This document shows, one piece after another, positions 4,720 to 53,099 of a stretch of DNA of 64,000 nucleotides (positions are counted from its first letter, which is position 1; each line of letters begins with the position of its first letter). The notes under the pieces were generated by a model. It was given only the letters and a program-made list of their open reading frames with translations, was not told the DNA's origin and did no database searches. A program made the translations under genes and the position numbers. Origin of the DNA: Glaucostegus cemiculus (lineage: Eukaryota); NCBI GenBank assembly GCA_976551045.1, contig CDPCPM010000263.1:3906001-3970000 (forward strand). Direction: 5' to 3'.

Positions 4720-5057
4720 TTAGCAAAGGGTTGACACAAGACTGCAATCGTCAGGATTACCGCCCTCCCAGCCACTCAAGAATCCCAAAGGGCTGACTTT
4801 GGTTACAAAATGACCTGGTAGGAGTGGAGCTTTCTCCAGGTGACATTTATGGAGATGCTTGCCTTTTAAAGCCACTGCTGCCACAGAGGAGGCACTGGAA
4901 GTTGGGGTCTCTCCCATGTGACTTTTCTTGTGGCCAATCAGGTGATTGTGGGACTGACACTGCAGGCCACACTGCTCGCACACAAATCTTTGAGACTTGT
5001 AATGGACACCGTGGTGATTTCGAGCATGGACCCGAAGGTAGGCAGCCGTGGTGAAAC
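4720..5057 (-). CDS. VEZF1: VEZF1 coding exon 5 (completes finger 7, encodes finger 8); drawn to the first in-frame stop, may instead end at an internal donor (4863 or 4815)
   Basis: Acceptor ATCTTTGTGTAG|GT in phase 1; (G)FTTAAYLRVHARNHHGVHYKSQRFVCEQCGLQCQSHNHLIGHKKSH; TAA at 4722-4720 gives a 427-aa product. 5' boundary is firm, 3' boundary uncertain. Confidence 0.82.
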
Positions 5058-7307: not shown

Positions 7308-7479
7308 CTTTGTTACAGACATTGCAGTTGTGATTTTGATTGTGGTTATGCATTTTGATGTGGTTGGAGATGTAAGCTGCACTCAGCAGTTTGCCACAGA
7401 TGTGGCAGGACACCTTTCCTTCGTGGCGTATCATGTGTGAACGCAGGCGATCTTTGGTGGCAAAAGCTGCATCACATGT
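7308..7479 (-). CDS. VEZF1: VEZF1 coding exon 4 (rest of finger 5, finger 6, CxxC of finger 7)
   Basis: 172 nt; acceptor CCTCATAG|ACA, donor AAG|GTATGG; TCDAAFATKDRLRSHMIRHEGKVSCHICGKLLSAAYISNHIKMHNHNQNHNCNVCNK. Confidence 0.96.
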
Positions 7480-9437
7480 CTATGAGGACACAAGACAGCC
7501 ATTAATGACCGTTTTACTAAATGTATTATACAACTCATGTTATCAAATTCACTTGACAATGATACCATTAAGTAATTCAATTATTATTTCTGAAATGCAG
7601 TTCTATACATTAACAACAAAATTTAGTACCAGAACCATCAATATATTCCTGTTGTCATTTGTTAAGTCTTGGCGGATAGAATGTAAAACAAACACACAGC
7701 TCTTCTAGTTTCATGTTTGCACTTGTCTGCAGGACTAGTTGCTAACCTCAGTTGTACTAGCTTCAGATGAAACTAAGCAGACGTTGAATAACATTTTCTT
7801 ATCATTAATGAGAACAACACGACTGGTTACAATGACACTGACAGAACCCCGGTAGCTGGACCCTGTTGGAAAATGGCAGTTAGCTCAAATATAAAAGGAT
7901 ATGAAACCCTTGTATATTTGCTTACATTAAAAAACTCTTATTTCATCACCATGAGAAGTGTGATGGAACTGAATTTTTTTTAAAAATATAAATATTTTCA
8001 ACCATGATTAAGGAATTGGTTGTTGAGTGATATTTGATGATCAATACCATTTTCTATTAAAGGGTTCACTATATTCAGTTCTGGTGTTCAGGTGGCATCA
8101 GATATAGAACAGTCAAGCAAGTGGCATTTCAGTACATGTACAGGAATGTGGTACTCACCGCCTCACTTCTATTCAATTATGTCACGACCTACCTGTTTGA
8201 TAACACCACTTGCTCACCTTAGTTCTATACTTCAACCAACAAATCCCAATTTAGAATCTTTCAGTCAACCTAATCTAAACAATTTTTATTTTGTGCGCGC
8301 GTGGGGTATGGGGGGGTGGAGGGAGGGGCCATAGAAGTTCTAATATTGAGATAAGTTGGAATTCTGATATCACTCCTGATGATACAACCCTTGTTTTAGT
8401 CAATCACAGGAATAAATTATCATTTCCGTTTGTGATGGCAAGTAGAGAGAGTTTAGTATTAGGTCCAGGATACCCTAGAATAGAAATATTCTTCACATCA
8501 ATCATTCATGAGGAGCTCTAACAAAAGGTGCCAAATAGGGTGGAGAAATAAACAGCAGATATATTCTAATAAGGTTCTTGTTTGTAAAGGTTTTGTTTAA
8601 AGATCTCTAGTTTTTGATACTATTCCCTCTAGCACACTTATTTCTCCTTTATCCAATCTTGTTTCATGAAGTATACTCACAATCACTCGAATTTCCACAG
8701 CCACAAAAGAAAACCTCTAGTCTTTAGAATCAGTGGGAATGTAATTCTCATATCTACCAATTCAAGAAACATTCCCAGTAATCTATTTTCCCTCAATTTC
8801 ATGGCACGTACTTGCTTAAATCTCAGGTTTTTTTTGTTAAATCTTTCTCCATTGCACAGCATTAACTTTGGAGAATCTTGGAATAACAATACTCACAAAA
8901 CCCATTGAAAGATGTGCATTTCTATAATACTTTTCTCCAAACCATGAGAATGTCAATTGAACACCACAAAGCAAATCAAGTAATTGTGATCCCCAGTGAG
9001 CAACAGGTGGACACTAGAGCACTTGGCTTGCAACTGGAAGCCCTCAATATTCCCACTTTACAGTTGATACATCAGTCTTCCCAAAGAAGGGGAGGGGTGA
9101 AGTAAGGGCAGGTTGTGGGGGAGGGGGAGTAGGGAAGAGAAGACGGGAAATGGAGTTGGGCAAAGTTGGAGTGGCAACCCTTCCCCGCATCCCTCAAATG
9201 AGCTAGCAAGTAACCCACGGAGCTGCCCTGGCAGCACTTGGCAATGGACCACTTCTTCACCTTCTTCCCATGGGGATCGCAAAGATGTGCAGCAAGAAAA
9301 TGATAAAATATACTTTGAGTTAAAGAACAGTTTTGGAACTTTTGACAACCTTTTGAAATTGACAATCTTTGAACATTTCTTTATCCATTTGGACAACACC
9401 TCTTAACTGGCTTTAAAACAGAAAAATAGGAAGTTAC

Positions 9438-9501
9438 TTGGCATTTGAAGGGTCTCTCTGTGGAATGAACATGTTTGACATGACAGCTCAGATGATCTGG
9501 C
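9438..9501 (-). CDS. VEZF1: VEZF1 coding exon 3 ((R)PDHLSCHVKHVHSTERPFKCQ)
   Basis: 64 nt; acceptor TTTTTTTCCTCTCCAG|, donor CAA|GTAACT; phase fits exon 2 (2) and exon 4 (0); peptide matches VEZF1 as recalled. Not in the ORF track. Confidence 0.96.
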
Positions 9502-10601: not shown

Positions 10602-11278
10602 CTGGAGAATCCCTTTCCACAAAGGCTGCAGATGTAAGGTTTGTTGATGCCCCCTTCATGTGACCGCACATGATAACTCATGCGATCCTTTCTCTTGAAA
10701 CGTTGCTGGCAAACTGGACACTCAAACGGCTTTTCGTCCGAGTGCGAAAGTTTGTGCCGGTTGAGGTGGTAAACGTCACGGAATGCTTTGCCACACAGTT
10801 CACAGCCATGATTCTTCTTCACTCGCCTGTTTGCATTCTTGCTGGCTGTGACTGCCGAGGTGCTGCTGGTGACAGTGGAAGTGGAGGCGGCAGTCGTAGT
10901 CAGCATCCCTGCAACAGTCGACACCAGCGACGCCGTGCCACCCACACCGGGCGCCGACGACATCAGTGAAACCATGGTCGGCACTTTCCTCGGCCGTGAG
11001 ACCAACTTGATTCCTGTGTGGCATGACTCATGTCGTCGCAGGTGATAACTGTCTCTGAATGCCTTGCTGCAGTAACTGCAGATCACTGGTGTTCTGGTTT
11101 TCTCCTTCTTCTCTACAGTCACCGTGGGTTTTGGCGCTTCTTTGGGATCGGGGGTTTTTGGGGCTGCAGGCAACGTGGTCACGGGGACTTGCTCACGTGG
11201 CTCATTGACTGAATGCAGTATTGGCAGCAGGTTATTCTGCACATGTTGCTGGTGTTGCTGCTGCGAGACATCAGCTGC
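10602..11278 (-). CDS. VEZF1: VEZF1 coding exon 2 (Q-rich N-terminus, C2H2 fingers 1-3 and first half of finger 4)
   Basis: Acceptor TTTTGTAG|GCA, donor AG|GTAAAA; 677 nt open frame with CSYCSKAFRDSYHLRRHESCH, CELCGKAFRDVYHLNRHKLSH, CPVCQQRFKRKDRMSYHVRSH and CSLCGKGFSR, typical of VEZF1/MAZ. Confidence 0.97.
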
Positions 11279-26830: not shown

Positions 26831-28132
26831 TACAAAACAACAGTGGAAGGACATAACTCAGGAACAGATGCTATTTTCCCTCTTCTTGAATATTTACTGA
26901 TGGTATTTGGTTCCACAACTGTACTTCAAATTGTTTTCTATCTGACAATATTGATAATAAGGAAGAGCACTCCCAAATCCAATTCACATATAAAAGTTGC
27001 AATCTACATATACACTCACAGATGAGGCTGCTAGAGTTTTTGCCTGATTTTTTTTCTCCTTCCTAACTCGAGGAATAATGCCTGATTATTTCTACTTCTT
27101 CACCAGCTGATTCAACAACAGATATCAAAGCTGGTCAAACATGACTAAGGCTAAAGCTAAATTTAATCAGATGGTCACCTTCACCGTCTCCAGCATTTTA
27201 TGTCAAATTGCAGGAGCAAAACACTAGCTAATACCATAAAGAGTGGAAGTGCAAAAATGTGCAGGGATTGTAATGAAATGCAATGCTGGCAGATTTACAC
27301 AAACTATCCACATGCACCTGTGGATATCCTTGTCACAAGGAAAAACTGATCACCAAGCAGCACAATATAGACCGGATTTCTTGGTTGTTTAATCACATCA
27401 GTTGTACACAATACACACAGTGAGAAGTAGTGTTAAATTCTAAGAAAAACTGCATTAAATTAATGAAACTGGAAAGTTGGAAATTAGCACCATCAATGCA
27501 TAAATCTCAACTGAGATTTATTAACTTGTATCAATAAAACAGATCCCTATTGACAAGACCATCACAATTTATATTGATATTTTTTGAAAAGCAACAAAAG
27601 CCATACATTTCAGTAATGATTTTTTTTAGCACTGAGAACAAAGGTGATCTTTTAAAAGCAAAAATGTTGGAATTAACCCGTTTAGAGTGTACGAAATACT
27701 TCAATCATTGCAACAAGTTCTAAGGTCATGGCACATGAAGAAAATTTAAAAACCATATTGCTTGCCATCAACAGATTTAAAACACAGAAGAAATGTTACC
27801 AATATTTTGCATACTTAGAAAAGCACTAAACCAGAATACCAAAATAGTGGATGATCCGCATCACACTTAAAACAAACTAAATAAAACAGTTCAGCTGCGT
27901 AGTGAAATCAAATGCATTTTTGTACAGAATCAAAAGATTTAAAATATACACAACAGGATCAAAAATAGTTGCCGACATAAGAATGGGTACGTGTGGGTAT
28001 GCGTTGGACACAATTTGAAATTATTCTGCCACTTATTAGATGGGGGAGGGTGGAGAAGAGAACTCAGTAATGAATTGAAGCAGTTAATACTTAAAAATAA
28101 CAGATATTTGCTTTTACAAATGGAGAATTTAA

Positions 28133-28700
28133 TGCAAAGTTAATTGTTGGGCTGCAGTTGAGAATACAGTGCAAATGTTGGCCTGGAGTTGAGAGTAAAT
28201 AAATACACTGCAAATGTTGGGCTGCAGTTAAGAGTAAATAAATACACTGCAAATGTTGGCCTGCAGTTGAGAGTAAATAAATACACTGCAAATGTTGGCC
28301 TGCAGTTGAGAGTAAATAAATACACTGCAATTGTTGGGCTGCAGTTGAGAGTAAATACAGAGCAAATGTTGGGCTGCAGTTGAGAGTAAATAAATACAGT
28401 GCAAATGTTGGCCTGCAGTTGAGAGTAAATAAATACAGTGCAAATATTGGCCTGCAGTTGAGAGTACATAAATACAGTGCAAATGTTGGCCTGCAGTTAA
28501 GAGTAAATAAATACAGTGCAAATGTTGGCCTGCAGTTAAGAGTAAATAAATACAGTGCAAATGTTGGCCTGCAGTTTAAAGAAATACACTGCAAATGCTG
28601 GGCTGCAGTTGAGAGCAAATGGGCTGCAGTTTGGAATAAATAAAGGCACTGCAATTGTTGAGACTGCAGTTTAGAGTAAATAAACGCAGTGCATTTGTCG
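28133..28700. repeat. Minisatellite, 39-bp unit, about 13-14 copies, degenerate at the edges
   Basis: Unit GCAAATGTTGGCCTGCAGTTGAGAGTAAATAAATACA(C/G)T repeated head-to-tail (unit starts at 28171, 28210, 28249...). Confidence 0.97.
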
Positions 28701-28977
28701 GGTTTCAACTCGAAATGAATGCCCTGCATTCTCGTGTGTTTTGGTGTGCAGGGAATGGAAGTGTTCTGCTAGGTGGGTGTTGCACTGCCGGGTTGGAGCC
28801 CAGCTGGGTGCCCGCCCGCCCGCCTGGGCCATGGTGCCGCTGCCCGGCCGGGCTTGTCTGCAGCTCAGCCCGGCCGGAGCGGCACACACAACAACAAAAA
28901 AAACCTCCCTCCTCGCCGCCGCCTCCCGCCTCCTCTCCCCCCGCCCCCACCGCCGCGCCCGCCATCCGCGGCCTCAC

Positions 28978-29010
28978 CTGAAATATGAAGGCGCCCCAGG
29001 TCGCCTCCAT
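28978..29010 (-). CDS. VEZF1: VEZF1 coding exon 1 (MEATWGAFIFQ)
   Basis: ATG at 29010 in GAAATGG context; 33 nt ending CAG|GTGAGG; peptide resembles the mammalian VEZF1 N-terminus MEANWTAFLFQ; lies in a CpG island. Confidence 0.93.
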
Positions 29011-52616: not shown

Positions 52617-52702
52617 CTGAAAAAGATCATTTTGTAATTAAAAACTAGTAGTTGCTGTTCAAAAAACAAGCAACGAAAATACCATTGAAATCTCAACCTC
52701 AC

Positions 52703-52890
52703 CTGAAACCATCACTCTGTATTCTGAGCGACGGGAGGGGGGTCCATATCTTCCCCTCGGTGTCTGACCACCACCTCCACCACCACCACCCCCTCTTCCA
52801 GTCCCTCTCCCACTCCGCGGAAATTCAACGCGCAGACGGTAGCCATCGTAATCATAACCATCACGACCATACACAGCATCTTCGGCGTCT
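52703..52890 (-). CDS. SRSF1: SRSF1 coding exon 2 (end of RRM1, Gly-rich linker)
   Basis: Acceptor TATTTTCAG|A, donor CAG|GTGAGG; [62 protein letters not shown]; 188 nt. Confidence 0.98.
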
Positions 52891-53099
52891 CTGAAAATAC
52901 AGCGAAATGTTGAAATTCACATGGAAATTGACAAAGAACAATCACGGCAACAGAACCACCTTTAAAAAAAAAAGCCAAAAGCATTATCATTCCAAATTCC
53001 TGAGAAATTGAAATCGACACGCATTTTGGATAGCCATGTGCTCTACAACGTGCCTCGGGACAAGGATCAGTAACACCGTACTTCATGATCAGAATACAA

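Follow-up and report, generated by a model that had tools for sequence, protein, structure and literature searches.

A conserved in-frame cassette exon that completes finger 7 and adds finger 8 in VEZF1 of sharks and rays, with a likely origin before the MAZ/VEZF1 duplication

Results

The VEZF1 locus

We analysed 64,000 nucleotides of DNA from Glaucostegus cemiculus, referred to here as the window (G000:C263:3906001-3970000). It carries coding exons of a zinc-finger gene on the reverse strand, with two last exons (A and B) beyond its edge. Positions below are those of the window unless stated.

52662..52916, reverse strand: frame bearing an SR-protein exon (SRSF1, synteny marker)
28978..29010, reverse strand: VEZF1 coding exon 1 (MEATWGAFIFQ), equal to the start of RefSeq ray VEZF1
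10602..11278, reverse strand: VEZF1 exon 2, with fingers 1-3 and the first half of finger 4; covered by a contig and stranded reads
9438..9501, reverse strand: VEZF1 exon 3
7308..7479, reverse strand: VEZF1 exon 4, with fingers 5 and 6 and the Cys pair of finger 7 (CNVC, within 7326-7309); phase-1 GT donor
4863..5057, reverse strand: VEZF1 cassette exon, AG acceptor and AAG|GCAAGC donor; 195 nt, phase 1-1
5057 to 5014, reverse strand: helix and His pair of finger 7, in the cassette exon
4980-4918, reverse strand: finger 8, in the cassette exon, followed by a short Ser/Ala stretch
4720..4862, reverse strand: in-frame read-through past the GC donor, with a TAA stop at 4722-4720
G000:C263:3904013-3903797, outside the window, reverse strand: last exon A
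G000:C263:3901515-3901391, outside the window, reverse strand: last exon B, ending in PTSPPW

The gene is the ortholog of VEZF1, which encodes a transcription factor of blood vessels. A maximum-likelihood tree with 26 rows and 143 columns was computed for fingers 2-6; its root was the PATZ1 of the same genome, and frog row P0238 was left out. It placed the window sequence on one side in a group of 12 VEZF1 rows with support of 100/99, the other 11 including coelacanth, teleosts and amniotes. It thus groups with VEZF1 and not with MAZ or PATZ1, and a MAZ identity was rejected on this tree. The gene also has a VEZF1-type finger 1 and the PTSPPW tail, and separate MAZ and PATZ1 loci are found in the same genome on contigs C1263 and C629. 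Approximately 24 kb upstream, on the same strand, lies the SR-protein exon, which is identical at 60/72 residues to the RRM-bearing part of the tree-shrew model P0230, a model in which an upstream RRM-bearing gene is fused to VEZF1. We take this SR-protein gene to be SRSF1, and in the human gene order SRSF1 lies upstream of VEZF1. The tree, the upstream SRSF1 and the SPPW-ending last exon bear out the identification of the gene made in an earlier note on this DNA. A model joining exons 1-4, the cassette and exon A is identical at 451 of 452 residues to Pristis pectinata XP_051891882.1 (VEZF1-like isoform X1). A tandem repeat array with repetitive open frames on both strands occupies 28094-28768, just inside VEZF1 intron 1.

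The tail encoded by exon A has 72 residues, of which 66-70 are identical between sawfish and three sharks, and no counterpart was found among the bony-vertebrate VEZF1 tails listed. The stop of exon A is followed, 24 nt further on, by a donor-like site, CAA|GTGAGT, and exon B may thus be joined to it as UTR. An exon of the polyQ type was sought and rejected here, there being none in 33 shark/ray-type proteins and none up to exon B by ORF scan.

The cassette exon completes finger 7 and adds finger 8

The 3' end of exon 4 (7479-7308) reads CNVCNK plus one G and is followed by the GT donor. The acceptor at 5057 is an AG preceded by a pyrimidine-rich tract, and joining exon 4 to it yields the fingers CNVCNKGFTTAAYLRVHARNH and CEQCGLQCQSHNHLIGHKKSH, each with C-x2-C-x12-H-x3-H spacing. 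The proposal that this acceptor completes finger 7 and adds finger 8 therefore stands, with 4863 now read as a donor of the GC type. At this donor, AAG|GCAAGC, the exon ends in frame after 195 nt, and in RefSeq models of relatives the residue at the cassette end is identical to that at 4863. There is no stop in the 195 nt, and the gene model continues into exon A or B. Read-through over 4720..4862 could represent an intron-retaining or terminal form.

Among the eight shark, ray and skate proteins compared, 62-65 of the 65 cassette residues are identical, and the cassette peptide matches a MAZ-like locus in the same genome (E 2.8e-10). Together these matches indicate that the cassette is not a chance reading frame. 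An AlphaFold2 model, made for the stingray ortholog P0006 (65/65 identical in the cassette) from a 20-row alignment, contains eight beta-beta-alpha units with disordered ends; the block of fingers 7 and 8 has a pLDDT of 81-85, with predicted helices at residues 320-331 and 352-362, respectively. Strict C2H2 patterns count seven fingers because the spacer of finger 6 has 11 residues, and finger 8 by itself scores under the Pfam curated cut-offs. No solved structure named VEZF1 or MAZ was present among 15 matches. Fingers 6 and 7 both have a helix of the form AAY-hydrophobic-x-x-H (window 7326-7420 and 5057-5014), which may be a trace of an old tandem duplication.

Six- and eight-finger isoforms in database models

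An initial protein search returned three candidates. The RefSeq models of sharks, rays and skates take four forms, with eight or six fingers followed in each case by tail A or tail B; in these relatives, isoforms X1/X2 contain the cassette and X3/X4 lack it. The cassette was included in 10 and skipped in 23 of the 33 shark/ray-type VEZF1 proteins that have exon 4, a count drawn from a listing that showed 15 of the main cluster's 62 members. The cassette itself is thus not new, since the automated RefSeq annotation of sharks and rays already has it. This is a point on which the earlier note needs correcting. What is new is the history of the cassette and its relic in PATZ1. In the literature searched, which lay mostly outside subscription journals and was in part seen as excerpts, we found nothing on an eight-finger VEZF1 or on the history of the cassette; sources included PMC7708047, bioRxiv 10.1101/2024.07.14.603411 and PMC11311815 (references), and the accessible part of bioRxiv 10.1101/2023.04.25.538167 gives a family tree as supplementary figure S3A.

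Transcript evidence from a close relative

Four of 23 listed runs were used, these being raw RNA (X21-X23) and a contig set (X1) taken as RNA by guess, all from one close relative of the individual sequenced. One X1 contig (record 5, depth 15.2) spans exons 2-4 and ends at 7308. Another (record 4, depth 4.3) has 226 nt and covers 4863-5055 without differences. Its length equals 30 overlap letters plus 195 plus 1, and exons A and B start with the same base; from this arithmetic we infer that the contig may be a spliced exon lying between two branch points. Differences between X1 and the window number 0/193 in the cassette and 7/175 in the piece of intron next to it (Fisher p 0.005), where a 175-nt contig covers 4666-4840; relative to exons 2 and 4 (8/852) the cassette does not differ significantly (p 0.36).

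Raw reads were mapped at 88% likeness, with interspersed repeats crowding the tables of joints and loose ends. The joint 7479-9438 was found in 2, 12 and 20 reads of X21, X22 and X23, respectively, and the reads in the cassette bin have the same strand as exon 2. At this mapping, the 7308-5057 junction was not among the 15 joints listed of 83 in the relative's runs. Rough ratios of cassette to exon 2 depth were 0.34, 0.06 and 0.87 for X21-X23; the bin holds few reads and intron makes up over half of it, and the ratios give no more than a hint of variable inclusion of the cassette. Both forms in the RefSeq models of relatives and a fitting contig of lower depth agree with the six- versus eight-finger switch that had been proposed, and the cassette is likely alternatively spliced, through its GC donor.

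No cassette among the VEZF1 protein models of bony vertebrates

Among 222 VEZF1 proteins of bony vertebrates that include exon 4, teleosts and coelacanth among them, none had a further finger. This set comprises 133 ray-finned-type and 89 lobe-finned-type proteins sorted by motif; it counts proteins and isoforms rather than species, and consists of protein models rather than genomic loci, with none named from gar, bichir, sturgeon or lungfish (nor, on the cartilaginous side, from chimaera). The first Cys of the leftover CxxC is gone in 133/133 ray-finned-type proteins and kept in 89/89 of the lobe-finned type. In the coelacanth model exon 4 is joined directly to the last exon, and in amniotes a polyQ exon stands at the cassette position. 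A search with fingers 5-8 listed MAZ forms of bichir, paddlefish, lungfish and coelacanth, and no bony-vertebrate VEZF1 with the cassette among the best 120 of 390 matches. A metagenome scan gave four loci: a teleost maz locus that carries the cassette (100 bits) and served as a positive control, a teleost vezf1 locus, and two unrelated ones. The teleost vezf1 contig showed no match in the 1.9 kb after exon 4 and ends before the last exon.

Nine teleost proteins named VEZF1 (P0072, P0075, P0078, P0082, P0094, P0096, P0120, P0125 and P0136) have fingers 7-8 and were rejected as MAZ by their finger 1. A search by name would thus falsely suggest an eight-finger teleost VEZF1.

Finding the cassette in 0/222 proteins indicates that its loss from VEZF1 likely took place on the bony-vertebrate stem. 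The earlier note had spoken of a loss from mammalian VEZF1; by this count the loss appears to predate mammals by far.

The cassette in MAZ and PATZ1

In the same genome, finger 7 of MAZ (C1263:26801) and of PATZ1 (C629:208313) is also divided by a phase-1 intron at this position. The MAZ exon (G000:C1263:26801-26583) has 219 nt to a predicted CAG|GCAGGA donor and holds a stop. Its locus lies at a contig end amid GC-rich tandem repeats, and a PW-ending last MAZ exon was not found within the 20 kb examined. MAZ models with six and with eight fingers exist in bichir and lungfish. The match at E 2.8e-10 and the common phase-1 intron agree with the homology to the MAZ-2/SAF-2 exon that had been proposed.

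The PATZ1 exon (G000:C629:208313-208131) contains a decayed finger 8 at the homologous offset, without the first Cys and the last His. This relic scores 29.4 on a finger-8 matrix, a value reached by 0/5000 shuffles in a test run after the HMM alignment had been seen; three intact fingers score 79-97. The exon runs for 183 nt to a predicted donor, an in-frame AAG|GCAAGC identical to that of VEZF1. The same intron position in MAZ and PATZ1, together with the PATZ1 relic, suggests that the cassette is likely older than the gene duplications, in line with the proposed origin before MAZ and VEZF1 separated. The simplest history, judged from these sequences, is likely inheritance by PATZ1, MAZ and VEZF1 alike.

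At fourfold sites the divergence of VEZF1 from MAZ is as great in the cassette (5/13 the same) as in exon 4 (3/15), and a recent copy from MAZ was rejected as unlikely on this ground. Synonymous sites between the two genes are saturated. In an exon tree in which PATZ1 was represented by its finger-7 half alone, all MAZ sequences came together with support of 97/99, and the alternative was 0.53 log units worse (p-AU 0.033). With the PATZ1 relic included, support for the MAZ clade was 75/30, and both alternatives were 0.17 log-likelihood units worse (p-AU 0.39). Taken by itself, the exon-only tree would be compatible with an old transfer of the exon from MAZ. In sharks, VEZF1 and MAZ have HAR, VCEQCG and GHK in common, at which bony-vertebrate MAZ differs.

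The representative search, which was crowded by long finger arrays, led to two hagfish clusters. The cassette was present in none of eight hagfish family models (P0299, P0301, P0404-P0409) and is therefore not traceable beyond jawed vertebrates. The hagfish clusters mix family traits, one having a BTB domain and a VEZF1-like finger 1, the other a PATZ1-like last finger and no BTB domain. No lamprey or invertebrate relative was found among 16 short matches examined.

Discussion

Origin and loss of the cassette

We consider it probable that 4863..5057 is a conserved in-frame cassette that is likely skipped or included by way of its GC donor, likely goes back to an ancestor shared by PATZ1, MAZ and VEZF1, and was likely lost early in bony vertebrates. 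None of the results that the earlier note had named as speaking against its reading (junction reads and purifying selection both lacking, grouping of the gene with MAZ, or a copy annotated and expressed in tetrapod VEZF1) appeared in the data examined. Such a history would explain why the mammalian VEZF1 array ends with an unpaired CxxC, and would date the MAZ-1/MAZ-2 switch to before the duplications of the family. A fuller account, for which we see an even chance, is that the three genes inherited one regulated GC-donor cassette switching between six and eight fingers, which MAZ kept, with a stop, which in PATZ1 suffered decay of finger 8, and which VEZF1 has kept intact only in cartilaginous fishes, the CxxC of human VEZF1 being a scar of its loss. 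The finding concerns one gene family, and its function is predicted.

The timing of the loss is the point at which another history has most room. The cassette might survive unannotated or in unseen isoforms of some bony-vertebrate VEZF1 genes, in gar, bichir, lungfish and perhaps coelacanth, and have been lost more than once. The bony-vertebrate evidence consists of protein models, with a sole teleost vezf1 contig covering 1.9 kb past exon 4; the protein clusters mix isoforms beneath one representative; and the CxxC persists in all lobe-finned proteins of the set. Against these points, none of the 222 proteins carries the cassette, and the best 120 matches of the finger 5-8 search held bony-vertebrate MAZ forms and no VEZF1 with it, which makes this history rather unlikely. 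We give still less weight to a regain, in which ancestral VEZF1 lost the cassette and cartilaginous fishes recopied it from MAZ by old gene conversion. The residues common to shark VEZF1 and shark MAZ fit such an event, and the three exon topologies are indistinguishable in the tree; yet the cassette would have to be lost and then return to exactly the intron it had left, synonymous sites show saturation, all MAZ sequences stay in one group in the best trees with and without the relic, and the VEZF1 donor equals the PATZ1 site and not the MAZ site.

That the cassette is a non-functional remnant, or merely a stop-bearing terminal exon running to 4720, seems very improbable. Such a reading could draw on the GC-type donor, on the frame that stays open to the stop at 4722-4720 and on the contig over 4666-4840, but it is opposed by the residues kept across sharks, rays and skates, by the cassette contig, which ends at 4863 plus one letter, and by RefSeq models in which this donor is joined to exon A or B. 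The least credible alternative, to which we assign a negligible chance, is that we are dealing with MAZ itself or with a duplicate resembling it, and that the cassette is an ordinary one. The cassette is indeed most like MAZ exon V', and finger 1 shows several teleost proteins that bear the name VEZF1 to be MAZ; the tree position, finger 1, tail, upstream SRSF1 and separate MAZ locus all speak for VEZF1. Early loss of an inherited cassette from VEZF1 of bony vertebrates thus remains our preferred account.

Proposed function

Skipping of the cassette would leave an unpaired CxxC before the tail, and inclusion would provide the helix and His residues of finger 7, add finger 8 and keep whichever tail follows. 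Fingers 1-5 have Arg or His at helix position -1, 3 or 6. At these positions finger 7 has T/Y/V and finger 8 has S/H/G, with none of the arginines typical of reading G, and their linkers depart from the TGEKP type. Under C2H2 recognition rules, such fingers read G-tracts poorly. Because the helix residues and linkers of fingers 7-8 are unlike those of G-reading fingers, we lean slightly towards an auxiliary role over a longer motif or no effect: fingers 1-5 would still read the G-rich site, and fingers 7-8 would form a module that alters binding stability or partner contacts. The cassette would then probably tune rather than redirect DNA binding, and the splice ratio might tune VEZF1 output by analogy with what is reported for MAZ-1 and MAZ-2.

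Comparison with known systems

The shark and ray VEZF1-like isoforms X1/X2 of RefSeq (XP_051891882.1, XP_059829373.1 and XP_072445908.1) contain the same exon and protein, and structurally there is no difference from the gene described here. Bony-vertebrate VEZF1 resembles the ray gene in fingers 1-6, in the PPW-ending last exon and in its neighbour SRSF1, and differs in the lack of fingers 7-8 in 222 proteins; the part of PMC6948172 available describes six C2H2 fingers and a proline-rich tail. PATZ1/MAZR has 4-6 fingers depending on splice variant, according to the accessible part of PMC12425865. Like ray VEZF1 it splits finger 7; unlike ray VEZF1 it has a BTB domain and a decayed finger 8.

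Human MAZ-2/SAF-2 was reportedly the subject of Ray et al. 2002. It uses exon V' (ENST00000219782) which, like the ray VEZF1 cassette, is an optional exon after exon 4 that encodes two fingers; the peptides are homologous and the phase-1 intron is the same. MAZ-2 is encoded by MAZ, whereas the ray cassette belongs to VEZF1, MAZ being a separate locus, and the sequences of finger 8 and of the linkers differ. Exon V' has 225 nt and a stop that replaces the tail; the ray cassette has 195 nt and no stop, and either tail is kept. As far as excerpts of PMC12102611 and PMC9756471 report, the extra exon of MAZ-2 leads to two more fingers, an early stop and a different activity, and the MAZ-1/MAZ-2 switch shifts in human cancers. 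The portion seen of PMC5622404 describes opposing effects of MAZ-1 and MAZ-2 on one reporter and activation of a MYB-site reporter by both, so that the functional contrast between them is context-dependent. In MAZ-2 the gain of fingers goes hand in hand with loss of the tail; the ray cassette brings in fingers and leaves the tail in place, and so takes the two effects apart. If this holds, sharks and rays would offer a natural test of the MAZ-2 fingers free of the confounding loss of the tail.
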